A stretch of DNA of 64,000 nucleotides. Source: Amoebophrya sp. A120. Its lineage: Eukaryota > Protista > Dinoflagellata. The position numbers were made by a program, and so were the translations under genes. A model generated the notes under the pieces. It did no database searches. It saw only the letters and a program-made list of their open reading frames with translations, and had not been told where the DNA came from. The DNA is taken from positions 6,105,985 to 6,169,984 of the forward strand of contig CAJINV010000003.1 in assembly GCA_905178155.1 (NCBI GenBank). Reading direction: 5' to 3'. Shown in pieces: positions 8,243 through 62,704 of the stretch. Each line of letters begins with the position of its first letter. Position 1 is the first letter of the stretch.

Positions 8243-11200
8243 TTAGATGTTTTGAAGCGCCAGCAGACTGGATGCCACCTTCTTGCCTGCGTTTCGCACC
8301 TTATTCCGAGTCGACTTTCCAGTATCCTGCTCTCCGCCAGCACCGCTTGGGCTTAATGGTTCCGAGGGAAGAGTCGACGTGATACCTTTCTCACCCCATG
8401 AGGTCACACACCCTCGCGGAACCAGCAAGCCAACGCGCGGATGCAAGTCAATTACTTCCTGGAGCATGGCCTGCGCTACACTATCGACCTTGAAGCTTTC
8501 CCGGACCAAGTTGCGGACGGAGGTACGAAGTGACTGTTTGATAAACATTTGAATTTTTTCAAGTATGTAGTTTCAATGACTTTCTTCTGCGGATTTTTTC
8601 GTGAGTGCAGCAGCAGCTGTACACAGTACTATACTTCTGACCCCTTTGATGACATAAAACAGCCCAAGAATACAGATCGCGAACAAGAAAAGTACATACT
8701 TACAAAACGAAAAAGCAACGTACGTCCTCAATGTCCTGACAGTGGTGATCGACTTGCTTCACTGTGGCCTCCGTGTCCGTGACGAGCTGCTTCATTTCAT
8801 TTGATCTTTGCTCCTGGTAATCGACTTCCGAATCGAGGTGTTTCTTGCACTCCAGCATGAGATGCCGCGCGAACCTGGGCTCCACGTTAAACTGCTGTTC
8901 CAAATCTAGGACGTCGATGCGCATCCGCAGTCGCTGTCTCTCCCGCTCGGCCTTGGACATTTTCTCTTCGTCCTGGAAAATCATTTTCGCTAGCACCGCC
9001 GCGTCCGCCAAGCTCATCTTCTTGCTCGCGAGCGAGCCACTCATCATGGTCGCGTCCTTCTCCTTGTTCTTCGCGGCGATGGCCACCATGGCGTCGGTGA
9101 CGGTTCTCTCTGCTTTTGCGGTGGCTCCCGGGTCGCGGTCGGGTTCGTCGTCCTTCTTCTTTGTCTCCGCCCCGCCGGGCTTTTTCTCCGCTTCCTCGTC
9201 CCGCTGCCGTTTTCTTCTTGTGCGGGGGGATTCCTGCGTGGCTGCGCTATCTTGTTTGCTCTCGTACGCGGCCCGTTGTGCGAGTCGCGTCTCCGTTCGC
9301 TGCGCCAACACTGTCTTACGACCGTAGGCGAGAGCCTCTCCCGATTCGGTGCAGAAGTCCTCGTAAATCTCCTCGACGCTCTTCACGCCCTTGAAAAGCT
9401 TCTCCATCTCGCTGTTCAGAATCCCGAGCTGCAGATACGCACGCCGCTGCAACAGCCAGTCCACGTTCCAGTTCAGCTCCCCTATGAACTCACCCGCTTG
9501 CGCAAAAACACCTGTAGTACAATATTGGTTTGGGGAATTAATTCTCGCACTCTCCGAAAATTAGTTTCATCTTCTGGCGTTTTCTGCATCCGCAAGGTTG
9601 TCGAGGCCTGAATTATCGTAAATAAACACAAACAGCACATAGCGACAGCCGCTCCACAACTAGCAGCGCAACATGAGCCACAAGGCCGCAGGACCTGGCG
9701 GATCGACTGATGACATAATTGACACGTCGGCTGTAAAAACAGTTAACAGACTACTTCTACCTTTTGCGTCTCCGACCCGCGACTTGAGTTCTGCGTAATG
9801 ATCGAAGATGAGCGCAATGAGCAGGTTGAGCAGAATAAAGGTCATGATAATCATGAAGCTCCAGAACCAAAGCGTCGCGGTGATCGGACTCAAATCAAAC
9901 ATCTCGTTGAAGTCGAACTCGCCTAGGATCGCCAGAAAGGAGGTGTTCACAGCCTTCGATGTCGTGGACCAGTCCTCCAATAAACTCCCGAACAGGGCAT
10001 GGCCGCCGAGCGCGTAGGAAACGAAGACGACGAAAAAGATGAGCAGGTAATGTACCATGTCCACCACACTGAGGTAGAGCGCGGATGACAGTACCGCGAG
10101 CCGGGGCTGTCCCTGGAAGGCCTTGAAGAAACGCATCATCAGGATCAGCGTGTACCAAAACAGCAGATTGTACTGGATCCTGTGCGGTTTAATGACTTTT
10201 GGTTTTGTCTCCTGAAACAGAAACATCATCGTCCCTCATATAAAAAGCTTATTTGGAACATTAAAATTACCCTTTGGTTACACATCTATCAACAAAAAAT
10301 GCACAGCACACTTTGCGGTAAAAGGAGCTGCAAAAAAGGTTGTGAACAATACCATTGCTGGTCGGCCAAATCTTATCCCACGAAAAAACTGTTTCACTGT
10401 GATGATTTTGCAAAATCCGCATCACAAGTTTGTTTACACATGACACTGAAAATTTGTCATGCGCGCTTCCCAAGGGAAAACGCGCTTGAAAATCCAATGC
10501 CTTGCAGGTGTAGCAACACAAATCGTTCTGTGTTGCATTTTCTGCATCACAAGTTCAGTGAAGCAGTTTTTTTTTGCGATAAATCTTGGATTTTGTCGAT
10601 GATCTGTCCCCACTGGTCGTGGTAGCTTTCGATGCTGCTGGTTGCCTATCAAGTGTAAAAGTGTCTGGGTCTGGAAGAGTGCGCGACTTGTCATGCAGCT
10701 TTTCCATGACCCATGAGGTCTGGAATACAGGACCTAGCATGACACATTCTGCGCGATCTCCATCTCTCTCATGCCTATCCTGCATGAGAAACTCCCTCCC
10801 GACTTGGTCAAAACTGGACGACTTTTGCGAGTCATTCGTTCGTTGTGGATCGGCTCTGCCGACCGGGTAACCCATCGCCTCACATACAAATGACCGACAT
10901 AGGCGAACCCCGTTGCGGGACATACAAACTGGCCGCACGGAAGGGCCCTAAGCGCTACATACATAGTCCACCCTAAGCGCCTACCACTTCGGTCGGGACT
11001 GCGTCTACCTGGTCCTGGGGGTCTACAGCGCACTAGCCCTTTGCGAATCATGCAACACAGATTTTTGCATGCTTCAGATTTCGCATGACAAGTTGCATTC
11101 TTCCAGACCCAGACATTTTTACATTTGATATTGCCACAAAGTTGCCGTCCGCGTCAATCTGTGACGGAGTGGCGGGTAGCGCCGCGATTTCCTCTGCCAG

Positions 11201-14164
11201 CACCCCCTGCTTCGATACCATGTCGAGCCAGAGTGCGCCCATGACGATCCCCAAGGTGATCGTGCACCAGTCCAGAAAGTTCCACTTGTCTCGCAGGTAG
11301 TCGAGCAGATAGCTGTTTCTTCGCGCCTTCAGCACTTCGAACAGCTCTTGCTGAAACAGCATGAAAATCATGCTCATCCAGATGATGTCCGGGAGGTAGT
11401 AGGCGAAGTTCGGATACAGGTTGGCGGAAGTGGCAGCAACCTGGATCGACTTCTGCATGTACCCGCCGTCCTCGAAGGTGAAGCGAACCTTCAGGTTGGC
11501 GAACAGGCGCACCTGCGCGTTGAAGAAGGCCGCCTGGAACTCCAGCCACTCGGTGTTCTCGTCGATCCAGCGGTTCGGCACCAGCAAATGCTCCACCTCC
11601 TCCAGTGCGCCGCCTGCCGCGGACAGGCGGCGCCCGACGTCGAAGTAGGCCTCGAAGATCCCGCTCTTCCCCGCAACGGGCTGAAAGGGGAGGTTGCGCG
11701 CAGTGGTGCCGGGCCCGTACGCCTCGGTGAGGGGAATCTCGGACCGGCACTGCATGTCGTACCAGGCGTTCAAATCCGTGTTCACTGGGCACCCCGAGGA
11801 TTTGAGTTTTTGTTGCTGCAAACGCACGCCGCCAATCAGCTGGTTGAACAGCATCAAACGTCCGGGTCGGTCGGAGGCGGCCTTCGGGGGTGGGTTCCCG
11901 GCCAAGACCGAAGCAAGCTCCACATCCTGGAACGTCAGCTGGTTTTCGCGCCATATTACCTTGATGGCAAAAGATACGTTCATCTTGTTCACAGTGTCAA
12001 TCTCATTCTTCAATACACTCTGAAGCGGCGACATCGCGGTTCGCGTATTTTTCACCGCGTTCCGCCGAATCTTGCGCAAATGGAGCAAAGTAAAAAGAAG
12101 AGCATGCCTTCCACTTCGTGTTTTTGGGTTTGCGTTTGCGTTTGGCTATCATGGCGCAAAGAGTAATATAAGAAAAATACTGGTAGGAGGCCGTGCTGTA
12201 GCCAAAACCAAGAGTCGGCGACTGAAATGACTTGGTCCCACGTGGTGATGTTTAGTGTGAGCTTGCTCGCATCCCCAATCTCGTTCAGCTTGTCTTGTAT
12301 CCTGAGTAAAAACGTACGCACGCCAGAGTTGTAATGCAGATTTGCAAAGACAGGAAGACTTGTAATGCGCATCACCATGAGAGCCATTTCCAATCGTGTT
12401 TTGGCATTTGTGATGCTGTGAACAGGATGAGCCGATGAATCTGTGATGCGGCTGCACTTGCTAACCTGCACTACACTGCAGAGTGCAACTTGTCATGCGT
12501 GACTCACAAAACTCCTAGGTTTGTGTTGCAAAATCCCCATCCTGACTCTGGTGTGGGTACGTTTTTCCTCTCAATATCTTGAAATATTTGTTCCCTGGTG
12601 CTTTGCATGGCGAATTCGGTGTAGGTTTGTCCGTCAACCATACCGGCGATTCGATGCACGGATACTTGTTGATCTTGGTCCAGAAATGCGAATTGAGACA
12701 TATCAAGGGCAGACTCGCAGCCCCGCAGCTTCGCCACGCCGCGGTCGAGCGCCTCCCGAGGCTGGCAGTTGCAATCGCAGTGCATTTGCACTACCTGTGG
12801 AGGACGATTTCAAACGCAGTATGAGTGACAACACGCATACTGGTAGTAGTTGTATCAAGCAGTAGTTCTAGTTGTACAAATTTTCAATACGCATTATTTT
12901 TGCTTCTAAATCAATTATGAGCTTCTACTTCTCAAAGTGGTACCGTCTCTTGCGTGGATCCTTCGATGGCGGGCGCGTTCCCTAGTGAATATCAGATGCA
13001 AAAAATATGTCATGGTCTGGAAGAGTACAAGGCTTGTGACGCACCAGCTTTTTTTTGTATATTCATGAAGCAGCTTTATCTAGTATCATGACCCAGAAGC
13101 AGAAGGTTTGGAATGTTGCGAGCCGTGGCATCACAAGTTGAGAGGATCCCCGACCCCGATGCCTATCCTGTACGAGAAATCTCGTCTCCAAGTGACCCAC
13201 AGCCAGTGGGTGGCTTTTGCTACTCATTCAATACAGATTTTCATTTTTGTGTCGCTGTCGACCTCGTCTAGCATTAATACAGACGCGGCGTTTATTTCCA
13301 GAGCCAGACGACATATTTGCAATGCATAGTAAAGGGTGTGCGACAATTCCAGAGACGGAGTCAGCGAGCGTGCGTTTCACCGAGAAGGTTTGCTCGACGT
13401 CGCCATGAAGCTGCACCAAGAGCACAAATGTCATCCACATTGCCAAGGTAAAGGGTATACCGCCTCCAGCTTCCAGAAACCACAGATAGGCATTTAAGAA
13501 CCTGTTTGTTCCGGGCAGTTTCTTCTTGTTTTGCTGAAAAAATGGCCGAGCTCCAAAAAAAAAGGCAGTTTGGTAGTACTTGCAAAGATTCAGCACAGCT
13601 GCTTAGTCCTGCCCATGGCTTACAAAAACGCGTTCATCCGGTTCCGGTAAGCAAGTCTCTAGGAGGCAAAAACAAAAAGCAAACCTTCAATGAGCAAATT
13701 TACGCAAACTTTGATTTTCAATCATTTTACGTGGAAACAAATTGTCTAGCAGTATACGAGAGCATCTCGCCCTTGCTCACGGAAACTCTCTCCGCCTCCT
13801 TTTCGCGCTTGCGGTACTGCTTGCCTCGAAGCCAAGGCAAGGTCCAATAAGGATGTGCGGCCAACTGCGTTCGGTCGCGGTCAATGTCTTCACTGCTGCC
13901 ACCCCAGGACGAATCGTCTTCATCACTGAGGTGTCCCTCGTCGAAACTTTCCTCGTCCTCATCATCACCTGGCGACCCAGTCGGTGATTTACCATTGCTG
14001 GGACTGGATCCCCCGAAGGTCTCGTCGAGCGGCACACTACCGGGCAGCGTCGCGGGATTCTCTCCCTCCCCGCCGACGGGCGATGCTGCACCGTCGTCAC
14101 CCGGCTCATCGGCGGCGGTTTCTGCCTCGGGATCCACTTTTTTCGCTCTTGAAAAAAGACCCAT
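8243..14164 (-). CDS. Polycystin-2/TRPP-like cation channel, single 6TM domain, 11 exons
   Basis: TOP-domain motifs NQLIGGVRLQQ and NRWIDENTEWLEFQAAFFN, S3 DKWNFLDW, S4-S5 MRFFKAFQGQPRL, pore FLAILGEFDF, S6 FILLNLLIALI. Six GT-AG introns (8534-8723, 9512-9760, 10180-10352, 11960-12180, 12795-12943, 13502-13730) plus four TIR elements; all joins are in frame. Confidence 0.88.
10374..10581. mobile_element. Introner-like TIR element IE1 (208 bp, family B)
   Basis: Ends TATCCCACGAAAAAACTG...CAGTTTTTTTTTGCGATA; TSD AATCT at 10369-10373 and 10582-10586. Removal gives DKIQD-LADQQW in frame. Confidence 0.92.
10647..11130. mobile_element. Introner-like TIR element IE2 (484 bp, family A)
   Basis: TIR TATCAAGTGTAAAAGTGTCTGGGTCTGGAAGAGTGC / GCATTCTTCCAGACCCAGACATTTTTACATTTGATA; TSD TTGCC at 10642-10646 and 11131-11135. 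Removal gives DGNFVA-TSSIESYHDQW. Confidence 0.93.
12298..12576. mobile_element. Introner-like TIR element IE3 (279 bp)
   Basis: TIR TATCCTGAGTAAAAACGTACGCACGCCAGAGT / ACTCTGGTGTGGGTACGTTTTTCCTCTCAATA; TSD TCTTG at 12293-12297 and 12577-12581. Removal gives EQIFQ-DKLNEIG. Confidence 0.92.
12990..13328. mobile_element. Introner-like TIR element IE4 (339 bp, diverged family A)
   Basis: Ends TATCAGATGCAAAAAATATGTCATGGTCTGGAA / TTCCAGAGCCAGACGACATATTTGCAATGCATA; degenerate TSD GTGAA (12985-12989) and GTAAA (13329-13333). Removal gives IVAHP(L/S)LGNAPAIEG in frame with the next canonical intron. Confidence 0.85.
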
Positions 14165-14302
14165 TTTGTTCGGAAGACCCTTGATATTCGCTCGCAGCCG
14201 TCCACTTCCCACCGAGATGAAGAACGGCGAACGATTTATGACACCCTTTCGCCTGAAGGAAGAACTTGTTTTCCCTCGCAGCGAAAGTCGAAGATGCCCG
14301 GC

Positions 14303-33093: not shown

Positions 33094-34351
33094 TCACGAG
33101 TAGGAATATTCCGCCTTGTTATGGAGAATAAGCTCTTCCCCAACGAAATAGAAGCTGTCAGATCGCGTCTCCCATGGGTTGCTGATGATGACCTTTTTCA
33201 ACTCCTCGTCCAGAACTTCTGGCATGCTGTATATAATCTCCCAGGTATTTACGCTGTCAGGAATGCAGAAGGGCATCGTGAAGTCGTAGCTCTTTATGCA
33301 CCTGTTGTGATTGCGTTATCTTTGGATGTTGAAGAGATAAAGAAAAACATTTGCATTTGATCAATCATGAATACTTACTGAGCTGCACAATTCTACTCTG
33401 GCATCGAGTTGATGACTGCGAAAGCAAGGGGGCGCCAGCGCGTCGCGAAGGTACGACACATCCTGGCACAAACCGCAACATAAAACTGCTTCATTCGCAT
33501 GCCGCCTCCCGTATTGTAACATTACTCAAAAACCGTAGTTGTACTAAGACTAACTATTATACTCGTTCTTGAAATAGTGGCGTTCTATCATCCGAAAATT
33601 TCGCACTTCCTTGCTGCAACGAAATTTCAGTTCCGTTCCAATGGTCTTGAGGTCCAGAAACTTCGGGCCAAAATGGTAGCGCACACGGCGTACGTCGTCC
33701 GGGTCCTCTGGTGGTGGTGTTGCTGTATCCCACCGAAAAGCAAGCCCATACCAAAAACAAATGAATTTGCCAAAAAAAAATGCTGCTTTCATCATTTTTG
33801 ATTTTTTTTCTAGTTCTTGGCTCTCCCGCATGACAAATTTTTTGGGCACCTTTGTCACCTGGCACGCAAAACATACAGATACAGTGCATTCCCGATTTGA
33901 TTTTGTGACACAAAAAAAGCAACACAAATTTACGTAATCTGGTATGATGGGTGTCCTCACTTTTCTCGAGGATATGGTGCTGCAGCTGGCGCATTTTCTA
34001 AATCCGCAGCGACGTCGAAATGAGTCGTGCTCTCGCCGGTTTCCTGTGTGGAAGTATGATCACAAACACAATCTCTATTAATCCTCGCCACGAGCTGCCG
34101 GCTGAGGCTGAGTTGCGTAAGAGCAAAGATACTACTGCGGATACACGAGAATGATCGTTGTCAGATTACTGCGCAGTACTGTAGTTCTAGTTTGCCTCGT
34201 CGGCCACAGATGTGAATAGTACCTCGTCGATGCTCCTTATCTTGAACGCCAGAAATTCCACCCCGTAGTGATTCGCGTCGAGGTCACAGAGAAATTCGTC
34301 GCAGGGCCCTGCGAGCTGTGCAACATACTCAGGTGTTATCGGAATCATCAT
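33094..34351 (-). CDS. UNC119: UNC-119 (PDE-delta family lipidated-cargo carrier)
   Basis: Assembled exons: ITPEYVAQLAGPCDEFLCDLDANHYGVEFLAFKIRSID; VRYHFGPKFLDLKTIG...NFRMIERHYFK; KSYDFTMPFCIPDSVNTWEIIY...NPWETRSDSFYFVGEELILHNKAEYSYS. GT-AG introns 34044-34222 and 33302-33562, plus IE5. Confidence 0.95.
33726..33974. mobile_element. Introner-like TIR element IE5 (249 bp) in UNC119
   Basis: Ends TATCCCACCGAAAAGCAAGCCCATACCA / TGGTATGATGGGTGTCCTCACTTTTCTCGAGGATA; TSD TGCTG (33721-33725) and TGGTG (33975-33979). Removal gives ENAPAAA(P/A)TPPPEDPDD. The nearby GT and AG would splice out of frame. Confidence 0.87.
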
Positions 34352-35228: not shown

Positions 35229-37697
35229 TCACGCTTGCTTCAGTTTCGCTGGTCCTGGCCGAGATGCGGCGGTGGCCTGCAGATACACCGAGAGAATTAC
35301 CAAGCCGACGGCACCCACCAGAGGCTGAGACGGGTACCTCCCTTGCAGCATCACGTTCAGAACCGCCGTCAGCACGATGCCGCATACGATGGTGAAGCCC
35401 TTCGCGACGCCGCCGACGTACTTGGTCACCTAAAAAGTATCGCAAGAAAAAACTGTTTCAGTGTGAACTTGTGATGCAGAAAATGGGACACAGAACTATT
35501 TGTCTTGCTACACCTGCAAGACACTGGATTTGCAAGCGTGTTTTCCCTTGGGAAGCGCGCATGACAAATTTTGAGTGTCATGTGTAACTAATTTGTGATG
35601 CAGATCTTGCAAAGTCATCACAGTGAAACAGTTTTTTCGTGGGATAAAAAGGAACGCATACATAATACGATAAACATAAATCATAGTGCTACAACTAGAT
35701 GCCGATTTATTAGCTTTCAATTTTTGGACTCATCTACTTCTCGCATATTATGTGTAAGCTAAGCATACCCGCCTCGTCCATGATACCAGCGGCGCTTTGT
35801 AGCTCCTGCAATACGACTTTCTGAGTAGTAAGTAGGTACCTGTCCAACCACGATCCCACCAGACGCTTGCAACAGCAGCGGCACGCAGCTTAGTAGCTCC
35901 GGAATGTGCACGGTTTTGGATTATCGACTGCGAATATGTCTGGGTCTGGAAAAGAGCAGCTACTTACCCCCTCTGATGCTTGTTGTTTCGCATTCCTGCA
36001 ATTGCAAAATCTGTGCTGCATCACCAAAAAAGTCGTGGCGCAATGATCCACCAGGTTTCCAGACCCAGACATATTTTCATTTGCACTGGATATGGATGGA
36101 AATAGCGCCATTCTGTCTTGTGGAGGCAGCCAGAGCAGGTCGTAGGCGTACACTCCGAGGATTTGTAAAGCCGTCAGCGAAAAAGTCGCACACGACAGCT
36201 CCAGCGAGAACAGATACGCGTTCTTCTTGCCTTGTGGTGCAGGACTGGGAGTAGAAGATGTCGAATCACTTGTTCCTGTGGTTGTGCTTATCTCCTTCGG
36301 TCTACTTGCAGCTCTACTGCTCGTCGCCGAAGCACTCGCTTCTGAAGCAGTGCCAGCAGCAGTTTTTCGTGTCTTGCTTCGATTTTCTCCTGGAGTGCGA
36401 TTCCGGTCTCGACTTGTCTTCGCATTGGATTGCAACTTGTAAACTGTTGTTCCCGGTGACGTAGTTGAGGGTCCTGTCACGGAATTATTCCTGTCGCTGT
36501 GCATCTCCTTCTCGGAGTCTTGGCTCGATGTGGCAGCTGCGCTCCCTGCCGTTGTGCCCTGCAGCTTGGAGGTTTCTGCATCAGTCTTGCTTTCGTGGTC
36601 TGTGCCTGCTTCGGTCGTGGCGTCGCTTCTGCCATCTTTATTGTAGTTGTTCCCTGAAAACAACTTTTTCGGTTGAGTGCTCACCGAGGATTTCGAGGTC
36701 AGCAACATGGACCGTTCGCACATTGCAGAGCCAAAGCCCGACAAAAATGCAGCGCCGAGGGCATATACGAATCCGAGCGTAAATACTCCAAGCTCAGCGT
36801 CCCGTGGGTTCGGCGTCGACGAGCCGGCTTCCGTAAGCCTAAGAAGGACGACGGCACAGAAAAGCAGCAGAACGGCGACCTAAGTGTTGCGAATTCTACT
36901 AAATTCATTTTCTTATTCCTTCTGCTTCTAGGTCCAACGAAGCACGTCTTGCACCTCATCATCTACATCACTTCATTTACGTACGAGACACTGAGCTTGA
37001 CACAAACACCATAAGCTGCGCCAATAGCTTTATGCAAAAGCTAGTAGATGTAGAATACGAAAAATCTACAATACCATTTCTCGGGCGTTTGTTCGGCGGC
37101 CAAGGATGAAATACGTAAAAAAGACGGTAAATGCCACTTTTGTCGGGTTGAGTAGATTTGACACGACCGGATCCAGGCTGAGCATAGCGAGGTAAATGAA
37201 TATGTTCTGCAGGCTGTAGCTTACGCTGGGAATGAAAGCGGGCACCACTGACGTTTCCCACGACAGCGAGCGCATGCTGGATTTGAACTTCCCGATAACG
37301 GCGAGTCCCGCAAGCGAAAAAAAAATTTTGGAACCCTCGGTCAACAGAACCATCACGCGTGGATTCACCACAGGGTCGCGGCGGGCGTAATCTGGGCATG
37401 GTTTATTCCTTCGTTTCTCTTTCTTGCCGCTGCCAACAATGACCAATGTTGCGTATTACGATCAGATCAAGGTCGAAACACAGATCACGTGCCCAGCAAA
37501 GAATATGACTTTTTTTCATTCTCTTTAGTACTCACAGCGCGTCGCACAGAGATCTTTGACTTACCTCCCGAGAGGTGCTGTGTGACGATTGGTTGCACCG
37601 CGAACTGAAACATAAGCAGGACCATCCATGGCAAACCGCGGGCGTAGTCATACTGCAACGCCGACGTGTTTGCGACCGGCTTCAGCGGACTCAACAT
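35229..37697 (-). CDS. Nucleotide-sugar transporter, SLC35A (UDP-Gal/CMP-Sia transporter) family
   Basis: Motifs AFIPSVSYSLQN, LLNPTKVAFTVFF, FLSGFGSAMCE and, after removing IE7 and intron 35430-35839, LLQASGGIVVGQVTKYVGGVAKGF. Start codon approximate. Confidence 0.88.
35438..35646. mobile_element. TIR element IE6 (209 bp, family B) nested in a canonical intron
   Basis: Ends TATCGC...GTGGGATA; TSD AAAAG at 35433-35437 and 35647-35651. Aligns end to end with the reverse complement of IE1. Confidence 0.93.
35922..36092. mobile_element. Introner-like TIR element IE7 (171 bp, family A)
   Basis: TIR TATCGACTGCGAATATGTCTGGGTCTGGAAA / TTTCCAGACCCAGACATATTTTCATTTGCACTGGATA; TSD TGGAT at 35917-35921 and 36093-36097. 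Removal restores MALFPS-KTVHIPELLSCVPLLLQASGG. Confidence 0.93.
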
Positions 37698-39182
37698 GCT
37701 TGTGTGAGGACAACCGGCGTGCTCCCCCGGCACAGGTTCCTTTGGACAGCACGTTTCCACTTTGGTATCAAATACTACTCCACGACGTTTCAGACCGCAT
37801 TTATTCTTTCCCCGGTTCACTCATTTTCCATGTCGTGTGCATTGTAGCAAGCGAAAAAGAGGAACAAGAGATGGTGCAAACGATCGTTAGCTGGTAATAG
37901 CGAGGTCATGTCTGTTTCTGTCACAGCGCAGCAAGAGTTTGCGAACAGGGCGCCCAGAAGATTGATGCGGAGGAGCAACGTAGTTTGTATTCTGAAAGTA
38001 AAAGCCTACCTGAGTAAATCAAACAAACTCTGTACAGAGTGACTGAGTATTGAAGAAGTAGAATTCAAAAAAAATGAAAAGTGCGTCTGGATGACGTGAT
38101 CTACTTCGAGAATAAACTCAGAAACCCGAAAAGGCCGACGTCGAATGTTGCGTCTTAATTATGAGTCCGTGCATTTGTAATGATCCAGAAATGTCATCGA
38201 CTGAAAAAAATGCAAATGGCATCCAAAGAAAAATTTTCAAAGGAGTACTCGCCGAATCGGTATACAAGAAAGCGGAAGGAAGCTGAAGAGCTCGGATCGG
38301 TTCTTCCAGTACCAGTACCAGTTCCACTTTCTTCAGCAAAGAGAAATCAGTCGGGTGCTCGCTTCTTCAGGCGAGCGAGTAGCTGTAGCTGTTTAAACGT
38401 GCTATCTGTAAATAGCTGGCGAGCGAGTAGTGTTTCAACTTATCACCGCCAGAGCTTGACGAAGCACCACCCTGCTTAGCTGTGAACGGCCAAACTCGGG
38501 GAGTTGCCGAGAAGAAGGAAGGCCGAGCCCTTCAATCAGCCCCGGCTTAAGAAAGGCGCAATATTGCCACCCCTACTTCCATACCGCACTAATCAACCTC
38601 CGCACAACCACAAGGTTCCAAACAAGCCTCCTCTGCTTGCCCTTCCTTGCGTCAAAGCAGGCGCCTAAGAAAAGGCAGGTCCTAAGCAAGACTTCTCTTC
38701 TTGCCCTTCCTGCCTACACCACTTCCGGAGCCGGAACTCTAGTAGCGACACGCAAACGCCACCAGGAAACACAGGAAAGCACGGAGTTATGCCCTGCATC
38801 GCCCAGTTGCCTCCCTAAAAGCCGTCAACCTACCCTGCTGCTCCGCCGTTCCTCTGTTGTGGCCGTGCGGCTCTTGTTGACCCAAGAACGACAAACCCAC
38901 CGACTGATAGACGCTGGCGAGGGACATCATTTTTACGGTCTCGCTTGTTTATTCTTGGTTGCAGCAAGCACAGAAAAAATTTCCTTCGTTCCGTTCTTCG
39001 TTCGGATTCACGACCACGACGTTGTCATCACCGGCCTATACGCTAGCGTCACGTACCTACGCGTAGTCGACGCACCTCGTCGTCGGCTTAGAAGATTTAG
39101 ATTTACACATATATAACAACCAAGATCTGCGTAAATAAAATTCCATGATTGAGTTGAAGTGTGGTTTCAAACTCATTGCCAT

Positions 39183-41543: not shown

Positions 41544-43064
41544 CTACTCCGTCCCACCGTCCATCTTTGACTGCACTGCTTCCGTTACTCTGCGTCAGGA
41601 TGTTTCCGGCGCTCAGGGCTAGAAAAACCGCTAGTTTCTCGCCCATTCGGGACCGTGGTGATTTGGTATCGTGCGGCAAGAAGGGCCGTCTCCTGGTCGA
41701 TGATGATGTCCGACAGGCGAATCCAGCAGAAGCACGATCTTTAATAGCCCCAGACCGAACCTGAGGGCCCTTCGGTCTCGCAGCATGTCCTGGGTGAGGA
41801 ACAATCCTGACCTTCAGTAGAGAGTGGTGCTTTTCCGTCATGACAATGAAGGGTGTTGCCGAATTGGAATTTTAAATTGCTTTACAGTACTGGCTGGAGC
41901 TGCTATGAAAGCACAGCACGGTAATACATACGCACACCTACTAGTCACACTCGCAACCGACAAAGAAAAACTTTACGCTCTTTCAGCAAAGAGAAATCAA
42001 ATTACCGAGGACGCTGATATTTTATCGGTGCTGACATCATCAGCCGCAGGAATCAAAGCGAAACTGCACAGGTGAAGCCCGGCTGCGTCAGCCTCTTGCC
42101 GGCTACATGAGACGTATGTTATGCCATTTGTGCTTCTCTTGAAGCACATCCAGCGGCTCCTTCTATTGATCAGTCGTATATCTTCGAACAGAGTCTACAC
42201 ATTTTGAGACGAGGCTGGAAACCGCGTAGTCAATAACCACGTCACCAGATGAGAGTGTCGGTTTACAACGAAATACTTTTGACCTGCGTCTCAACTGCAG
42301 AAACAGAAGCAGAATCGGGCACCATCATATTCGTGAGATTTATTTGTAGAAGGTGCAGGTGGACGTGGAGCGAGACGCAGCATTCATGATTATGTCATAT
42401 ATAAAACACTAAATTCCAAAACGGGACCAGTATCGAAAGTAGTCAGTTGTATCTAAGACGGTAGTTGGAGTTAGAACTTATCCATGGCGTGGCAATTCTT
42501 TCTCGTACAAAATTCGGTAAAAATTGGCAGCAGCTTTTCCTCGCCGCGGCGAGCAGGATGCTATAGTGTATTCGGTAAAAATTCTAGGATTCTTTAGATG
42601 TTCAAGAAACCGAAGCTTCTTCATATCCTATTATTGATCAGGTTTTTTTTCTCTTTGTTTGGGTTGACGTTGATGTTAGTTTGTCTTCTGGATTGTCTAT
42701 AGCGTATATTGAAAGATGAAAAGTTATGGTAAAAGTCAAGCCTGTAGTGTATGAGGAATCCGGCTCAGTAATAGTCTTTTTCTCTATCTGTAAAAGTGTT
42801 TTTGAGGTGCTGTGAGGCTGTCACTGTACGCAGTTGCGTGCGCATAAGAAAACTGCGAGCGGGAAGAGGAAGCGCGTCGCCGGTTCCAGACATTTTCTTC
42901 CGAAAAATATGACGACTGGCGACACGGACACAGGTCTCCATGTATAATAATTCACAAGTTGTTCACACGAAAAAAGGAAAATGCCCGGAACATCAACTTC
43001 ACAGGGTCTTATATTCTCCTCTAGGAAGGTAGCACATGGAGAAACCGTCGGGGTCACCCGTTCT

Positions 43065-46000
43065 TCATGCGGGTGGTGGTGGTGGTGGAGGCGGCACTGG
43101 TGGTGCGGGAACGTCAGCCGGCCCGACAATTGAGGCACCGAAGCCACCCGAGATTTCTTTCAACGCCTTCGGCTTGAATGGAATCTCCAACCCCGTGGGG
43201 GTTGCGTCGTTGCAGAGCCTTACCTTGCTGACGTACCCAAACGCTTCGCAAAATGCGAACATCTCCAGTTCTTTGGGTACGGGAGATCCCTGGGCCAGCC
43301 AAGGGTGCAAGTCCATATGGCATGCCATCACAATGTCCCGATTCGCGTACCTGTTGATGTTCGATGATTATATAGTGCTCAAATGCATGTTTTCGCACCA
43401 GTAAAGATTTTTTCCGCGGACGTGGGAAGAAGGGAAGACCAAGACAAGAAAGGAAGAAAAGCGAAAATAAGCAGAAGCCTTCCAAGGTGATTCCAACTAG
43501 AACTAGGTAGGAGTACCAGAACCAGAAATCAGAAAGCGGGAAAATATAGTAAATCTACATGGAAATGGTCCAAATCCAGTCGGCCTTGGTGCTGTCCTTC
43601 GGGCGGACCAGTACCGACATTCGGTCTCCTGGCTTCCATTTGATCGGCGCCGAGTCCTCCCCGTCGAGTATGTAGCGGATGTCTTTCTGTCCGTCCTTGT
43701 AGAGCCGCCGCGTCTGTCCATAGTACGGCCCGGAGAAAAACCAGCCCTGCTCGATCTTTTCCAGCCGCCGCGGAATTTTCTCGATCTGCCCCGGCACGTC
43801 CGGGTTCAGAAAAGACACGCCAAGGCCCAGACACCCGACACTTTCCTCGGGCTTCGGTGTCACCTCCACCACTTCCACCTCGACGAAGTACCCCTGCCCA
43901 TGCCGCGGGATAGGCTGCGCGCTCACCGCAACGACGCCGTCGGGATTATCCAAAGAGAGTAGCCCCTTGATTGCGCGAGCGAAATTCTGTCGAGTTTTTC
44001 GATCAGACAAAAGTAAGTGCAGGGCACAGCAGCAGCGACCAGAAGCATCTAATTACTAGTATTTCATTTTTACATCAGTCACTTACTTTCCTTGCAGACA
44101 GATTCATCAAACAATATCGAGCTGGACTCATCTATATCACCTTCCCTGCGCCCTGGGCTGAATTTTGGTAAGAAGATGCGCGTGATAAAATCGCTCCATT
44201 GACGTCCGCAAACGTGCCACGGAGGTTCGTGTTCCAGGTGAGCTTCGTGGGATCAGTGAGGGTCGTGAAAGGAAACATCCAGGCATCGAAGATGAGTTTC
44301 AGAGACGTGGTCTCGTCGCTGCTTGCGGCGCTGGCCACGCGGCCCTTTATGTTTTCGCCCTTCACCATAATTCGGGTCTTGCCATCGATGAGCGCGTCGT
44401 ACTTCTTGGTTTCCGCCACGTATCCCAAAATAATGCCCTCCCGTCCGTTGAAGCTCGCAGCCTTCTCGCTCTTCAGACCACATATCACGATCAGGTCGTT
44501 TGGCTGGAATAGCGGTAGGTCGGGCACTTTCGAGGGCTTCACTACGGAAGAGGACGACGCCACCGCCGTTTCGAGGCTTGAGGAAGCCCCTGCGGTAGAA
44601 GCCGAAGCAGCAGGGCCGCCCTGACTTACGCCTGTACTAGTAGTGCCCGACGCACCGCTCCCAGCGCCCTCCTCCTCCCGGCCTGGGGCGGCGGCAAGTT
44701 GGGCCGGACCGCCCGCCCCGTCTCCGGCAGATCCCGGAGACGGCAGCTTGCCTGCCTCCCCTGCTTCGACTTGCTGCTCGACGCCTGAAGTGCCAAACGT
44801 CTCCCCGTCCTTTTTCGGCACGCTCCGTAGCTTGACTGGTTGCTCCGGCTTCTGCCCAACGGGAACGAAGGATTGGACTTTCTGGTCAGAAAACCGCGTT
44901 GTTGACTGCAAGCACGTGCGAACATACCTTCAATTTACCATATTTGATGTTGAAACTACGGGGGGGCGTTCATTTTTCTTGGTGTATCTTCAAATCAAAA
45001 TCTTAATCATTATGCTATGTATACGAAGCCTCCACACGCTCGACGCCCTGAAACGATTCGGACGTGTACACACCTTGCTCAATGTCCGCGAGATCGAGCA
45101 GCTTCGTTTCTTTCAAGGTTGGCAGGTTGATCGTGTCTTGCTTGCGAAACTTTGGCTCGGCACGCTCCACCAATGGCGGCGGCTTCATAAACTTCTTCGT
45201 TTCTACCCCGGGTGCTGCGGAGGAAGAGGACTGGTGTAAGTTTACGGTATGTGCTTGTGGAGGGGCGAGGCTCTTGCAGTTGCACTTTACTGTGTTTATT
45301 CATTGCAGAGACGCGCAAGCATGCGAAATTTCTGCCGCCAAAATCAAATCAGAAAACGGGATCCAGAATCTCGTCGCAGACATAGTAGACACAGTACCAG
45401 GAGCTCCTGCTTCTTCTTTGCAAAATATTCTTGCTCATCCTCGGAGTCGACATCGTCCGCACATACTCGCGCTGCATTGCCGTAGACTTCGTCGTCGTCA
45501 CCATCTGTAGTGGCATTTTTTGGACATTGCACTACCGAACAGCACCGGCAAACTACTGCCTGTCTCACTGACCTCGCTAGAAAAGCTACGTACATCATAC
45601 GCGGCTGATAAATTTCGTCTGCTGGGTCGTGCTGATGCGACAAGACACGCAGCGAACGCAGCACTTGGTCGAAGACACCATCTACATCTCTTACCTTCCG
45701 TTTCGTCCTGTGCACTCTCTTTTGGCACGGCGACCGGCTGTGAGCCAGTAGTTGATGAGGTTGATCGCGCTTTTTCAAAGCGAACGAGTTCGTCGACCCA
45801 CGTGTCTGCGACGTCCGTTGCATTTTCCAACAGTTCTTCCAATGCGCACACACGTGACAACAAATTTACTGGACCTGAAATACAGTCAAAATCGAGTAAA
45901 AACTACGGACTGCGAGAATACTGGCGTGGGAGCCCATGTGGAGCTGGGGAGGCGTGGGCATCAAAAATCATGATCAATAGAAATAAAAGCGTAGAAGTAC

Positions 46001-46462
46001 CGTCCCATCTTGGGTCTTTGTTATTTGTCTCGGAAAGCTTTGCTGTTTCGCACAAGGCTTTTATCCGCGGTATTCGGTCATTCCCCTTAAACAAGATAAC
46101 CAATCTCCCCTGTTGTATATGTTTTAGACAATGCTATATGTCAACATGCACGTCTATCGCGAACTTCACTCACCACGAAGTAAAAAAACAGCGCATGAAC
46201 CATGGAAAGCCGGTTGCCATGGTTCATGCGCTTCGGTGCGAGGTAGTATGGCTCGTACTCTCTGCCCGGCTTTGCGATTTTCCTCGATAAAATCCCGGAG
46301 AAAGCCCACGGAATTGAGGAATTCCATCTCGTAGCGCCGTTTTGTGACTGACTCATTGGATGCGTCCAGAAAAAGGTCTTGGTGGTCGGCGATGAGTTTC
46401 TCGGCGGTCTTGATCTCAACCTCCACCTGCACACCAAACGTCTCGGAAACCGACATCTTCAC
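43065..46462 (-). CDS. Multi-exon protein with an SH3/KOW-like motif and a C-terminal neuralized (NHR)-like domain
   Basis: LIVICGLKSEKAASFNGREGIILGY...KYDALID...MVKGENIK; GVVAVSAQPIP..GYFVEVEV...LGLGVSFLNP...WKPGDRMSVLV...MFAFCEAFGYVSKVRL. In-frame GT-AG joins near 43350-43560, 43990-44140 and 44930-45025. The 5' exons are less certain. Confidence 0.65.
46190..46232. repeat. Perfect 16-bp inverted repeat (hairpin, 11-nt loop)
   Basis: AGCGCATGAACCATGG (46190-46205) and CCATGGTTCATGCGCT (46217-46232). Confidence 0.9.
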
Positions 46463-47654
46463 TGACGAGCAGGAGGAGGAGACCGTAGAACGGTACTATG
46501 GCCGCTCCTGTGGTCAATGCAGCGCGGTACACAGTGGCGTCCCCTTCCGCACCTCCTTCGGTCAGGCAACCAAACCCAAATCGCTTTTCTCGGTCATGAT
46601 CCCAGGTTCCTCCGTAGCACTCGAATCTGTTCGCCTAAGTACGACCTACTAGCACACACGCGTACAACGAGATCGGAATCCATGACGCGATAGATAATAT
46701 GTAGAGTTGTCAACTGGCTATTTATGTTCCTTAGTACACAAATCGACGCGGGGACAGCATGTTCGTTGACCTGTCACAACGACCATGACGAATAAACACG
46801 AAAAACAGCGCACACTGAAAAATTGCCCTTCGATCAACATACGTCTCGCAAAAGAGGAGCTAAATTGAAGGTAGATATATTCTTTCAGTGTGAGATAAGT
46901 CAGTGCGTCGATACTATCTTAGCTTATACGCAACCTACTGCAGCTGGACCCGCAAAGAGAAATACGCTCGCACCAGATAGCACCGTTAATATCGTGATCG
47001 CGCTCGAAAGATACTACTTGTATGTTTCATACACATGAATGTAGTACGTTGAGGTCGAGTTGGACTTTCCATACTCGAATATTTACCTTTCACCACCACT
47101 CGTTTCGACGAACTGCCTCTGGCTTTGCGTTCGGCTAACGTCGTTTGCTAGCTACAACGGAAAAGAACAAAAGTGTAGCAAAACTCCGTCGAACGGAGGC
47201 ATCATGCGAGAGTCGCTGCAGCAGACCCCAGGCTGCAATGACGTGATGCATTGTCGCAACGCGATTTCACTTTGTGAGCATCGATCCATAGTTAAGTGCC
47301 TGCGCCTGTACTAGCCGTGATATGCCTAGGTTTCTCGCGTTGTCGCGCAGATGCAGATCAATTTATTGGTATTGTCCACGCGTTTGCGAAATAAAACAAC
47401 ACGCGCTCGTCTGAGCTAAGAATTCAGCAGATCATGGGCAGTACTAGTAGCACCTGGAAAGGAATGCCATAGCCATACCTACTAGGTCTAGGGGCAATAC
47501 GTACATAGAAAACTGGTCAACATCAAGCGAGTGTTGATGTTGGGAAAAGAAAACGAGACGGAGAGCGTTAATCTGTACCTCGTGGGGAAGAGGAAAACAC
47601 CGCCGGGGGAAATACACTGGCGGCAATTCCAACGCGCTCCGTCCATGGCTCGCT

Positions 47655-50600
47655 TCACTCATCTTTTGCAACCGTATTTGAGCCCACAGCTAGACTGAGC
47701 TCCAGAAGCCGACTGTATTCTCCTTGTAGTTTTTCTAGCTGAGCTTTGCGCGCAAGCTTTCGCTCTTCCTGCACTTCGATGTATTGTGCCAGGATGTTTT
47801 GGTTCTGCTGCGCTTCCTGAAGCTGGGGCAGCACGTCGTCGATGTACCTGTCGAGCAGGTTGGATACCTCGAGCAGATCGCTTGCAACCTGCCCCATCAT
47901 ATTTTGCTCCTTCTCTTTCACTTCATAGGCCGTCAGGAGCCCGGTCGGGTCCGCTCCCGCCCCGCCACCCGCGGCTTCATCGGTCGAGGTTCCATGCATA
48001 TCACCGAGGATCAACGTGCTTGTCTCCAGAGCCCAGTCTCGCCACTCCTGCGGGAGGAGAAGCCAGTACGGTGTGACTTCGTTCTTGATACTTTCTTCCT
48101 TGATCGCACGCGACATCATCCGTCGCGAGGCCGCACTCTTCCCGCCCGGGGACTTGTTGGACCGCTGATGATGCCCCCGTCCGGAGGTCGGAGACGGGGG
48201 TTTGTGTGGACGAGCGACGGTGGAAGCAGACGCAGCGCTTTGGTCCAGTTCTACTCTGGGGAGGTCCGCATTAACATCATCGAGGTCGAACCCCTCCCCC
48301 GCGGCCCCTCCGCTGTGGAGGTGCCCCCCCGTTCCCAAAGGGTCCAGGAGCTCCCGGGTATATTCCTTGTCGAAGTGCTGGAAATTCTTATCCATCACGG
48401 CAAAGAACACGTTCATGAGCAGGTAGTAGAAAAGCATTAGGAAGGGAAAGAAGAACACCGGGGCCATGGTGGGATCGGCGGCGGAGAGCAGCGAAAACGC
48501 GTAGTTGCCAAGAATCATCTCGTAAACCTCCAGCAATCCGTCGGACAAATTGGAGAACTCCTTGTGGTACCGCCCGAAAAACAGGTTCCCCGCGAGCACG
48601 AAGCCCCAGAAGATGACGAAGAAAAGCAGGAAAAACCAACTGATGTCCTTGAAACCCCCCGCGAGACTCTGAAAGATGACCGTCATGCGGCCGGCGGTTC
48701 GGAAGAATTTCAGAAGCCGGAAAAAGATGAAGACCACGTTCAGCGCAGCCGTGGCTACGAAGAGGTCCTGCTTCTTGGCCGCCTGAAAGAAAGCCGCCAT
48801 CACCTCGGCGTCGCTGCACCACCACCCGCTTTGGATGTCGCAGCCCTCCCAGGTGGGGTTTTCGTACTGCACGTACTGGGCAAGGAACGCATCGCTGGAG
48901 AACCGCATCCACAGCAGGATCGACGTGATGCTCAAGATGTAGGAAACGAGGTCCACGGTGTTGAAGAGGTCCATGCAGAAATGGTGGAGAAACGCCTGCA
49001 GCCCTGCTTTGAGATACTCAGTAATGCTGAGCCTAATCCCGTGAGTCGGATCCACTTCGGCAGCTGCTGCCTCGGCAAATTGTGGCGGTTTCGAAGATGT
49101 GGCCCCCCCATCTTCGTGCTCATCTTGCAATTTCACCAACTGGGGCTTGGGCGGCGCAACCGGAACGAAATTCGCGGGGTCGTCAAGGAGTCCCTCGTCG
49201 AACAGCTTTTCTGCGAGCAGCCGGTTCTTCTTCTCGACGAACTCAGCGTGCACCTCTACGCCCTCCTCGATTATGTAGTACGCCAGGTACACGAGATAGA
49301 TCATTTCGAGGAGGACCCGAATCACGTTGGCTGTTTTGTCAAACGTGTAGTACTGCACGGGAAGGGACTTCAGCGTGATGCGCTTCTCCACGCCGCCGCC
49401 GGGGGGAAAGGTGAAGCCGACAATGGCCAGGCTGAAAATCTGCAGCTGCGCGTTGAATACGAGAAATTCCACGACCAGGTTCGCCGTTTGCGCCGAGACG
49501 TAGTTCAGTTCCTCCATCTGTCGGGTGTCCCTGTCAAACAAACGCGCGTGCACACTGAGGCTGCGCACGAATGCGGACTGCTCGTTGAAGCCGGTCGTGA
49601 AATTGCCGAGCACCAGTCGCTGCCTCACGTCCACGACGTCCGCATATCAAAAGGAAAAACTCCCCCTCCCCATATCAAAACGAAGTTTCTGATGCTGGAT
49701 TTGCGTACACAAATCAGATTTGTCCTGCTGGAGAGGACTGCAGGCCTATACTAAGCCTGAGTAGAGAGGTTTTCTGCTAGGCGCTAAGCATGGCAAACGC
49801 CTAGGCTGTAGGGCCAACAGCATCACAAACCGCCTGCAGAATGTGGCGTAGCCTGTGTAGTTTCGGTCCTGCAAGACAGAGATGATTTGAGGGCACAAAT
49901 GAGCATTACAAATTTCCTGAGACGTGCCTTTTCGATATGGGGAGGGGGGATTTTTGCTTACGATACCGCAGCTTTTTTCACCTGGTCCGCGAATACATCC
50001 TCGGCCTGCACCGACAGGTCGCGGACCGTGCTAGTGCGCTGGTACAGCAAATCGCTGGGTAGTAGAGCGGCTGAAGTTGTTGATGTACTAGAAGAACTAC
50101 TCGCAGCACTTGCGCTTGCGGTAAGGTAGGGTGTTGCCTCCATGGGAAAAAGTCTCTGCGTGAGCCGGACAGGCTTTTGCCCCAAGACCACGTTCCAGTT
50201 GCGAATCACCAACTGCTTGCAGCCCCTCTCCCCGGGCTCGTTGCCTTCGCAAATGCCATCAATAGAGGTGTGATATCGGTCCAGGAACTTCGACGCGCTC
50301 GAAAGGTCGTCGCCGGGCAGCGACTCGCTGGACTCGAAGAGCGCGTACCGCAAGCCGGTGCGCAACCAGCGCAGGACGTCCGCGCGCGATTCGATACCGT
50401 CGAAAGTCGCGTACCGCTGCCCCGAGGTTGAGGACGGAAACGTGGCGTACCGCAACGCGTCCTTGATGGGCTCGCCGGCGTGAAAGGTGTCGCTCCGCTG
50501 CAGCTGCAGGTAGAGGATCACAAAGTAGAACACGACAAACAGTGCGTACAGCACTTTCGTTGTCAATCCATCCTCCTGCGGCTCCTCCTCCTCATCCTTC

Positions 50601-53600
50601 TCTTCGACGCCAAAGCCCAGGAACCGCTTAGCCTTGTCCGCCGCTGCGTGCACATTCGTGTGTGCCCTCAAAAAGACCGCCGACTTCCACCGGTTGAACT
50701 TGTCCTGCGCGCCAACCTCGCTCTCGTCGTCGTCGTCCTCCTCCCCCTGTTCCCCGGAACTCAGGTCGGACTGTCGTTTGAGCGCCTCGCGGGCCTCGGC
50801 GTCGTTGACGGCGTCGACGTTATGGATTGCAAATATGTCTGGGTCTGGAAGAGCACAACTTTGTCATGCACATTTTCCACGATCCATGATGTCTGTGATG
50901 TATGCCATAGCGTTACAGATTTTTTGGGCGCTGGCTTATCTATGCGCACCCAGCATGACAAATGCCCTCTCCGCGTGGTAGCCAAATTAATCTTTAGCAT
51001 CCAAATGCAGCATCACAAGTTTGGCTCTTCCAGACCCAGACATTTTTGCATTTGATGCACATACGCCGCGTTCAAAATCGCGTTATTCAAGTTGACGAGA
51101 ATGAAGTAGAAGAGAAGCATGAAGATGAGAAAAAATATCCTCGATCGCACCGGGTACTCCACGATGAGCAGATCGTACACGTCCACCTTCCCGCCCATCA
51201 TCTCGAACAGGGACACAAACGCGTCGCTCTGCGTGCCAAACTCCGTCAACCGGCTGCCGAACTGGATGTTCGAGAAGTTGACGAAGCCGAGGAACAAAAT
51301 CGTGCAAAAAAGCGTGAAGCACACGAGCGCGGTGGCCGACCGGGCAACCATGTCAATCAGGATGCGGACGCGGACGGAGGCGATCCGCAGGTAGGAGAGT
51401 AAGTTCACGTATTGGAAGAAGAACGCCAGCCCAGCGATGCGCTGGAACAACAGAAAGCTCGCCGCTTGCTTCTCGAACTTCTCCATCATGGCACTGAAGC
51501 CCGCGGCGTTCAGCGCATCAGTGGTCCCGGTGGCTACGGCGCTGCTCTGCTCGAAGGCGTTCAGGTCCGGGAGCGCCGAGTCCTGACTCTGGTAGGAGAT
51601 CCAGACGGTGTGCACGACGTAAAACAACACGATGTTGAGCAGCATCAGGTAATTCCAAACCGTCCACTTTTGGTTTCCTCCGCCGAACAGGACACGGACC
51701 GTCCACAGAATCAGCACCGCCAGGGTCATTTTGTCGTCCGCCTGGTACATACCGAGACCAATGTCCGTCGCGACGCTCTCGGCGTTGCCCGTGAGGTCCA
51801 GCGTGTCGAGCTGGTACTCGCAACTCACGCTCCCGGCGACGTTGAAGGTGAAGATCAGCTGCACCCAGGTGTGCAGCCGCAAATTCGGATTGTAACTTAC
51901 GAAGTCCACCGCAACCGTGCTGGTGTAGCGATCGATGAACTTATGAAGAGTGCACAGCAACCCCTGTGGCCCCTCATACATTGGTGCCATGCTACTTAAG
52001 AAAAGACTGCGCAGTCGAGTCAGGGGGTGCTATTTCGGTGTGTCATGTTGGGAAACTAAGGGCAGGGCGTCCCTTTGTAAAACAAAACTACAAACATGAA
52101 ACCGCATACCCGGTAAACTCTAAAACAGAAAATTGAACAACGCGATTTCTACCGAGAGACAACAACAGAAACTCCTGGGACGGCTGCGACGTGAGTTCTG
52201 TTGTTATCTGAGTAGGAATAGCTCTGTGCAATGATCGTGTCTTAGCACCGAGGGAACAGAAATAAAAAGTAAAAAAGCGTGAAGCAGCTAACTATGACAC
52301 AGTCCCACCTACTGAAAAAACCATCCTAAAGGTGGTATCTGGAATTTCTAGCAGGGAAAAACTTAGTGGTTTGGAAAATGGGGTTGCGATCGTGGTGCCA
52401 ACGTATTTCGGTGTGTCATGCAAAAATCTCTGCTCTGGTGTTGGTTGCGTCGTTGCTCATGCCTTTCAGATGAGGAGGCGAGGGCGACTTATGGCTGCAC
52501 TCGGATAGAACTGCCCGTCCTTCACGACCTCTTTGAGGACAAGCGCAAGCTGTTCTACCGCTGGCGTCTCACTGCTGGACCGTTGCGTCACCTCCACCAG
52601 TTGCACAAAGGCAAGCTGCTTCTTGCTCCCGTAGGGTAAAACCGCGTGCGACGTGCTGCGGTGAAACTGGTTCAAACTCGGCAGAAAGATGGTTCGTCCA
52701 TTGCTGACCAACGTCGGCGGCACCAGTTCCGAGGCATAGTTCGGCATCGTTGGGTAATACGGCGCGGAAAGCGTCAGGTCGTCTTTGCTGTAGGACCGAA
52801 ACTTGCAGTAGGAACAGACGTCGGAACCGGCGTTGGCGCAGTCTGACGGCACCAGCAGGCACCCGCAGTCGTACAGCCCGCACAAGCGCTTGCACGTATC
52901 CAGCGTCTCCCCGACCACCACGTGCGCTAGCTCCTTGCCCCCGATGCAGACCTTGTTCGGGAAGATGTTGAACTGCAGCTCCTGTTTGCCCGCATCACCG
53001 AACGAGGAACGGCGCCAACTGCGGTAGGCGCCGTAGTGCGTCAGATCGTCGAACTCCTCGGTTTCGTCGTGCACTGAGACCCCGGCCATGCTGCCCCAGA
53101 CCTCGGGCGCTAGAAGCTTGAAGTCCTTGTCTTCATTGGCCACCATCTTCATGCGTCGCGTCGATATTCGCAGGGGCGTGAGCACGCGGTTCGCGGCGCT
53201 GGGAGCCGTGACGGCTTTCGGGAGCGCTTCGGTGAAGAACGCCTCGACGTCCTCCAGGCTCTGTATGTTTTCCCATCGCCGCGAGAAGTATCCCCAGAAA
53301 AAAACCCATCCATATCCATTTTATGCATGACAAACAGTGGATTTTATTCTTATGCATGTTTTGCATGACAAATTGGATGTGGATGGGTGTTTTTTCCTGG
53401 ATAAGAAGCCGTGTTGGTCTACGTAGGTTGCGGCCTTGATAGATGTAGACCAGACCCGGTTCACCTCGTACGCGTCGCCTGTCCGGACGCGATTACTCAC
53501 ATAGTACAAGGGCCAGATCAAAAACGTGAGAACGTACAGAAGAAACTCAAACCCCGATAATCGCGCTGCTGCGTCCTGTTGTATGAAAGTTTGCCGCGCG

Positions 53601-62379: not shown

Positions 62380-62704
62380 AGGCAGCTGCGCCGCCAACTA
62401 GACGGGCCCGGCTCGCCATCCCTCTTCGCAGAGTTCGCGCAGCAACCATAGGGGCCCACATGAGGCCGGTCGGAATCGGCCACGCATCGCGTTGCCCGAG
62501 CCGACTGCGTGCGACGCATGTTGCTGGGTCGGCCGTCAGCTATAGGGGGCCGGCGCCCAGCTTGACGCCCGCGCTGCGCGCCCGTGTTTCTGCGATTGCG
62601 CGCGCGAGCTCAACCGCAGAAGCATCTCACGGCCGCGATTTCTAATTTTTCGCGAGGTTTATGTTTGTCGTCGACAAACACAAATCTCGGGAAAGTTGGA
62701 GGCC

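Follow-up and report, generated by a model that had tools for sequence, protein, structure and literature searches.

Introners of Amoebophrya sp. A120 have been described as 29,850 repeated introns whose ends carry TAT followed by seven variable bases and three or more As (Farhat 2021, PMC7789003); direct repeats of 3-5 nt flank them, and the text of that paper gives no transposase and leaves the position of the intron border undefined. One of the A120 families, number 38, is integrase-like (Gozashti 2025, PMC12130899). Introns with paired ends are also known from Euglena, where the paired motifs have a spacer of 3 nt on the 5' side and one of 5-6 nt on the 3' side (PMC12501133), and from Fritillaria, where non-canonical introns derived from terminal inverted repeats (TIRs) are apparently removed by the spliceosome (review PMC11282704). 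Here we analyse elements of this kind in a 64,000-nt stretch of the A120 genome (contig CAJINV010000003.1, positions 6,105,985 to 6,169,984; hereafter the window), for which an initial annotation had proposed precise removal from coding exons independent of GT-AG sites. The element class is already published, in A120 itself, and its recognition here as an Amoebophrya introner is borne out by identity with A120 proteins and by the end motif. A strict 5-bp target site duplication (TSD), a cut register and a likeness to splice donors were not found stated in the literature text searched, to which Fig. 3 and S19-S25 of Farhat 2021 may be relevant; no mechanism for the removal of A120 introners is settled in the literature found.

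Elements in the window and their absence from RNA

The elements are non-coding transposon copies that are kept in the DNA and skipped in the RNA together with one 5-bp duplication's worth of sequence. The window contains eleven of them, IE1 to IE11:

10374..10581, minus strand: IE1, 208 bp, TSD AGATT, exonic in TRPP gene 1, fits protein model P0005
10647..11130, minus strand: IE2, 484 bp, TSD GGCAA, exonic in TRPP gene 1
12298..12576, minus strand: IE3, 279 bp, TSD CAAGA, exonic in TRPP gene 1
12990..13328, minus strand: IE4, 339 bp, TSD TTTAC/TTCAC (one mismatch), exonic in TRPP gene 1
33726..33974, minus strand: IE5, 249 bp, TSD CACCA/CAGCA (one mismatch), UNC119, RNA gap of 254 nt
35438..35646, minus strand: IE6, 209 bp, TSD CTTTT, inside the GT-AG intron 35839-35430
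35922..36092, minus strand: IE7, 171 bp, TSD ATCCA, SLC35A-like gene, X5 RNA piece begins at 36093
49645..49965, minus strand: IE8, 321 bp, TSD TGCGG, TRPP gene 2, RNA gap of 326 nt
50821..51057, minus strand: IE9, 237 bp, TSD ATGTG/ACGTC (two mismatches), TRPP gene 2, RNA gap of 242 nt
51942..52507, minus strand: IE11, 566 bp, TSD AGTTC, ends without AAA, RNA gap of 571 nt
53289..53403, minus strand: IE10, 115 bp, TSD CTTCT, RNA piece stops at 53283, as expected

The initial annotation had listed ten elements of 115-484 bp with 5-bp TSDs, seven perfect and three degenerate, and a re-scan recovered all of them; an eleventh, IE11 (51942-52507), had been overlooked and was found through its gap in the RNA. 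TIRs starting with TAT had been claimed for all ten, but the sense-strand start of IE9 is CAT. The re-scan searched for TAT...ATA pairs flanked by 5-bp repeats, with 30 block shuffles as control; seven pairs in the window had both a perfect TSD and 10 or more matching bases among 16 in the TIR, where the shuffles gave a mean of 0.2 (maximum 1). All eleven elements are flanked by 5-nt direct repeats (eight perfect), and the motif of TAT, seven nucleotides and at least three As is exact at 18 of the 22 element ends, at both ends in eight elements and at neither end of IE11. IE1 and IE6 are members of one family in opposite orientations. A further candidate at 23311-23903 was dropped when an alignment-based scan did not recover it.

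Four sequencing runs were compared with positions 33500-53499 only, which hold IE5 to IE11, and for the RNA- and DNA-type runs the material was contigs and not reads. The RNA type of the runs is a guessed label backed by GT-AG introns that are spliced out and by intergenic bins that are empty; X3 lacks one GT-AG intron and has zero depth in 7 of 30 bins. Among the seven elements compared, four have direct RNA junctions (IE5, IE8, IE9 and IE11), the RNA is consistent with removal of two more (IE7 and IE10), and none is shown for IE6. The joint 33720->33975, a gap of 254 nt at IE5, occurs in both X3 and X5 beside an ordinary 179-nt GT-AG intron. A single unbranched X3 contig of 7459 nt and depth 30 has successive gaps of 326, 242 and 571 nt, with the joint at IE9 lying at 50816|51059; its last listed piece stops where the IE10 repeat begins. 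Precise removal without GT-AG, alongside ordinary introns of the same transcripts, is supported. The nine gap sizes that had been predicted as element plus 5 nt (213, 489, 284, 344, 254, 176, 326, 242 and 120 nt) are correct, and those of 254, 326 and 242 nt are seen directly in the RNA contigs. Retention of the elements in transcripts, named beforehand as the outcome that would speak against removal, is not seen in the RNA contig, which skips them.

Removal of IE1 to IE4 rests on the A120 protein model P0005 and on orthologs; in the region of these four elements the word share of the RNA-type runs is 0.45, where 0.41 would be expected of exons alone and about 0.74 of sequence with the elements kept. 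Estuary runs X9-X11, with a share of 0.05-0.13, were given no weight as evidence. The DNA-type run has a depth of 41-47 on unique sequence, and its unitigs cross the TSD/TIR borders at depth 41-44, which is background. IE5 lies within a 12,899-nt DNA contig, and no joint skipping it is among the joints listed. Summed over the TIRs, depth in this run exceeds background by factors of hundreds to thousands; this points to a high copy number and is not a measure of it. A raw RNA run with the same species label, X12, does not contain the genes of this strain; it has only 85 matching reads, all on one TIR (51026-51056), which is bordered on either side by one foreign flank.

Host genes and their protein products

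Four genes, all on the minus strand, carry the elements:

8243..14164, minus strand: TRPP/polycystin channel gene 1, 1117 aa, six GT-AG introns and four elements
33094..34351, minus strand: UNC119-like gene (PF05351), 187 aa, two GT-AG introns and IE5
35229..37697, minus strand: nucleotide-sugar transporter (PF04142, below the curated cut-off, one exon), 504 aa, three GT-AG introns, IE7 and the intronic IE6
47655..53656, minus strand: TRPP/polycystin channel gene 2, 1580 aa, four coding introns, all of them elements

Pfam matched seven of 13 exon pieces (polycystin domains, PF05351 and PF04142), and exon queries were 99-100% identical to Amoebophrya sp. A120 proteins. The splice models agree with the earlier assignment of nine of its ten elements to exons; the remaining one, at 35438, lies in a GT-AG intron. 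As had been proposed, retention truncates the proteins and deletion restores them: any single exonic element, if kept, brings a premature stop, while deletion of each element plus 5 nt gives products of 1580, 504 and 1117 aa identical to P0001, P0009 and P0005, and an UNC119 of 187 aa. P0001 and P0009 are reproduced in any cut register and P0005 exactly only with a cut after base 3 or later. The public A120 gene models already omit these elements. There are no indels across IE1-IE4 and IE9 relative to orthologs from A25 and from the transcriptome of another strain, nor across IE7 relative to the A25 ortholog; IE8, IE10 and IE11 lie in looser regions of the orthologs, with small gaps close by.

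IE6 lies 8 nt from the 3' end of the GT-AG intron 35839-35430. Placed so, IE6 would have to be excised first, as nested splicing, unless the branch point loops across the IE6 hairpin.

The element population in metagenome loci

A TIR pattern search of metagenome contigs gave at least 125 stretches, of which 124 loci (L001-L124, 397 kb) were analysed. The loci were chosen through one TIR family, and the positions of TAT and AAA are fixed by the search pattern. To judge from its predicted proteins the organism is closely related to A120; among 29 open reading frame (ORF) look-ups, three gave ORFs that group with A120 proteins and are about 90-100% identical to them. Five of the eleven window elements belong to a family, and their relatives in the metagenome loci are about 65-85% identical. 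A 470-nt match in L105 and L058 that spans IE1, the exon and IE2 was set aside as two adjoining element families with an unrelated spacer.

Removal of element plus 5 nt accounts for these loci as well, with 17 of 17 residues reproduced at 13 of 13 junctions tested, including that of a 1148-bp element. Among 269 elements selected by TIR alone the 5-bp TSD is perfect in 190 and has one mismatch in 39, while perfect repeats of length 3-4 or 6-10 number 0-7. Exactly one TSD copy must stay for the reading frame in 71 of 74 elements (of 252 elements with flanks, the 84 with confident frame calls on both sides, minus 10 strand conflicts). Both orientations are found in eight of ten families, including all seven with at least four members, and the two element arms are similar over the first 31 positions. 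The longest stop-free stretch is 149 aa (three elements longer than 450 bp), with no mobilising enzyme recognised there. No transposase was recognised in the 397 kb of metagenome loci or in viral contigs, the ORFs of long elements not having been run against Pfam; the viral contigs gave 0 matches.

At L021:2216-4706 six elements lie in one gene of 464 aa, with exons down to about 40 nt, and X1 DNA contigs have spacers of 29-40 nt between adjacent elements. Where mismatched TSDs differ as A/T against G/C between copies, the A/T is on the upstream copy in 15 of 20 (p=0.04).

Position of the cut within the duplication

With a perfect TSD the cut can slide. Four mismatched TSDs tell which copy reaches the mRNA and so confine the cut to the position after base 3 or 4. 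At IE5 the upstream copy supplies base 3 (RNA of X3 and X5); at IE4 the conserved Leu193 requires upstream base 3 in the A120 model and both orthologs; at L003:3812-4136 base 3 again comes from the upstream copy, by comparison with the A120 model P0030; and at IE9 base 2 comes from the upstream and base 5 from the downstream copy, in a single contig of X3. The first three cases put the cut after base 3 or later, and IE9 puts it after base 2-4. Under a register common to all elements, the cut likely falls after base 3 or 4 of the TSD. The earlier suggestion that IE2 could be read as GC-AG would place the cut after TSD base 1; under a shared register the mismatched TSDs exclude that position. 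An equal-length GC-AG alternative for IE4 was also rejected; it would put LLWN in place of LLGN, the sequence of the A120 model and both orthologs.

We infer that all elements share a single register and that it lies after base 4, not base 3. With this cut 70 of 138 introns are in phase 0 (p=6e-5), which is equivalent to TSD base 1 standing at codon position 3, and letter preferences next to the TSD do not account for the bias (best p=6e-4 of 150 tests). These counts use 138 oriented exonic elements, 114 others being omitted as uncertain. If the cut follows base 4, 32 of the 138 junctions have G.G or A.C terminal pairs, where 23 are expected (p=0.051); if it follows base 3, 15 do, where 17 are expected. 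The homologs of L030 have a polar residue in five of five aligned sequences, which mildly favours a cut at or after base 3 and is silent on base 4.

Mechanism of removal

A GY-AG pair can be read in some register at only 11 of the 138 junctions, at 0 in register 3 and 4 in register 4, and at none of the eleven window elements in register 3 or 4. The letters of the TSD match the coding background (p=0.049 in a single test out of 28); purine at TSD base 5 is found in 74 of 112, against a background of about 58%. Junction letters and orientation thus appear not to matter, and the information would then have to sit in the symmetric element ends. We propose that the elements are removed by RNA splicing positioned by their paired ends, likely by a relaxed spliceosome, a reading that we hold and doubt in about equal measure. 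A stem of about 25 bp, formed by TIR positions 8-31, would join the ends and replace site definition by U1 and AG, and the cut would fall at a fixed distance from the paired ends. The intron would then read N|TAT...ATA-NNNN, in which T+2, A+3 and Y+4 may mimic the GTAY of host donors; the relaxed spliceosome would take the element end as donor, with the stem as both bridge and ruler from which the 3' cut is measured. The case of Fritillaria is a precedent for such a scheme, and several observations are compatible with it. The element hairpins fold at z -4.9 and -7.0, and their arms pair poorly at positions 4, 5 and 7 (0.38-0.54) but for the most part at 0.7-0.9 over positions 8-30. Canonical donors in the window have GTAY in 10 of 13 cases and G+5 in just 3 of 13. 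In the 13 confidently exonic elements with degenerate ends the 5' TAT is altered only at base 3 (three TAC, one TAG) and never at the A. A near-complete spliceosome has been reported in A120, with U1 snRNA undetected (Farhat 2021, PMC7789003). Mobility of the elements could be provided by a DDE transposase or an integrase acting in trans.

A number of results weigh against a spliceosome in this role. AG is absent as a signal in every register (TSD bases 3-4: 7 of 112 against a background of 9%), there is no excess of G at +1 (42 of 112 against 32%, p=0.27), and 106 of the 138 junctions have neither a G.G nor an A.C pair. Branch-point-like motifs have no sense-strand excess (TRAY in 94 against 99 of 138), although a branch point carried by the TIR would be symmetric and invisible in this comparison. 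All 13 ordinary introns examined keep GT...AG, most of their acceptors being A-rich without a pyrimidine tract, so that the same spliceosome would have to be strict on one class of intron and indifferent on the other. The donor likeness amounts to three letters, the upper bound on the cut (IE9 base 5) comes from one contig of one run, and bases 3 and 4 were not separated by Pfam (2 of 29 exon pieces matched) or by the ORF look-ups (3 of 29 leading to an A120 protein).

The absence of AG, the strict GT-AG of ordinary introns and the many junctions without a compatible terminal pair are also what would be expected of a separate machinery like that of Euglena, in which a structure-guided nuclease and ligase, or a new ribonucleoprotein, would act at fixed offsets around the TIR stem without lariat chemistry. 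This explanation, a serious possibility that we find somewhat doubtful, is further favoured by the near indifference to junction letters and orientation, by the tolerance of a changed TAT at either end, and by a stagger of 2-3 nt common to both systems (a cut after base 4 falls 1 nt before and 4 nt after the TIR). Against it stand the donor-like N|TAY end and, with the cut placed after base 4, the borderline excess of G.G and A.C pairs and the surplus of phase-0 introns; the CDG/CHG signature of Euglena is also absent. The stronger form, a second and spliceosome-independent splicing system that ignores junction sequence, cuts with a fixed stagger around any TAT-ended TIR hairpin and is convergent with that of Euglena, is a tentative suggestion that we would sooner doubt than accept; if true, an alveolate would have such a system, and this transposon could enter its exons either way round without harm.

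Explanations that do without an unconventional splicing reaction fare much worse. A hairpin with a direct repeat is a known setting for reverse-transcriptase template switching (PMC8240250), and the RNA evidence used here is all presumably cDNA-based, so that the gaps might be falsitrons and the real mRNAs might retain the elements and be decoded in some other way; we judge this very improbable, given that three successive elements are skipped in one unbranched contig, that IE9 is skipped with two of its five TSD bases mismatched, that retention would truncate conserved proteins and that the conservation of Leu193 agrees with the spliced form. Moreover, a reverse transcriptase running 3' to 5' would be expected to leave a copy of the downstream repeat, and bases 2-3 are the upstream ones. 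Programmed DNA excision of the ciliate type, by which an expressed genome copy would have lost the elements, had been raised in the initial annotation and is suggested by transposon-like ends that begin with TA and by a removal that exactly restores the pre-insertion site. It found no support in the DNA-type run, one run that may be the assembly's own source and whose contigs drop rare variants, since the unitigs retain the elements at background depth. Excision of ciliate internal eliminated sequences leaves one TA; here both TAs are removed and a variable 5-mer is left, and we regard this route as highly unlikely. In-frame GY-AG pairs lie within 45 nt of every window element (7-39 each), and ordinary GT/GC-AG sites nearby might in principle be used, or the genes might be pseudogenes. 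The RNA gaps equal element plus 5 nt exactly, which refutes such sites for IE5, IE8, IE9 and IE11; with the orthologs free of indels at IE1-IE4, IE7 and IE9, and with so few junctions readable as GY-AG in any register, this explanation is scarcely credible.

Mismatched TSDs are natural markers of the cut site and give a handle on the open question of how the elements are removed. Applied genome-wide to existing RNA-seq, they would fix the register and the true intron ends and could guide searches for lariats or circles. A spliceosome that disregards both terminal bases and a second splicing machine would each be of consequence for RNA biology.

Other repeats in the window

Three further repeats were recorded. 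At 38354-38791 another repeat has a DNA depth of 329 against 44 and breaks the unitigs; no TAT ends were found there. A tandem array of a 13-bp unit occupies 56507-58968, with 190 copies and 98% matches, and nested inverted repeats lie in a GC-rich stretch at 62420-63182, including a 45-bp hairpin at 62734-62846.

Comparison with known systems

The elements resemble miniature inverted-repeat transposable elements (MITEs) in their TIRs of about 30 bp, fixed TSD length, lack of an ORF, length-defined families and occurrence in both orientations; they differ in that no cognate transposase was found for them in the 397 kb of loci and the viral contigs. The MITE introns of Fritillaria borealis (PMC11282704, bioRxiv 2025.08.15.670264) are likewise non-autonomous elements whose TIR ends serve as splice sites, with an adapted spliceosome; as described there, they keep the preferred ends AG-AC and AG-AT, whereas the terminal bases in A120 would come from an arbitrary TSD. 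With the nonconventional introns of Euglena (PMC12501133, PMC11282704) they share TIR-paired ends, slidable TSD-like borders, coexistence with GT-AG introns and fixed spacers. According to those sources the Euglena introns need N3CDG...CHG-N5-6|R and are released as circles, while the elements of the window and the metagenome end in TAT(C/G)...(C/G)ATA.

Closest of all are the introners of A120 itself. The A120 families of Gozashti 2025 (PMC12130899), compared over 22 of the 58 rows of the family table, are mostly classed as 'TIR DNA, superfamily unknown', many are 150-320 bp long, and many borders are non-canonical; their TSDs, as called automatically, are 2 to 5 long, with one manual call of 5, whereas the TSD here is strictly 5. 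The introners of Farhat 2021 share with the present elements the organism, the TAT-N7-AAA inverted repeat, the direct repeats, the RNA-supported non-canonical borders and the repeated families. Where the text of that paper has direct repeats of 3-5 nt, the elements described here have a strict 5-bp TSD that is likely cut after base 3 or 4.

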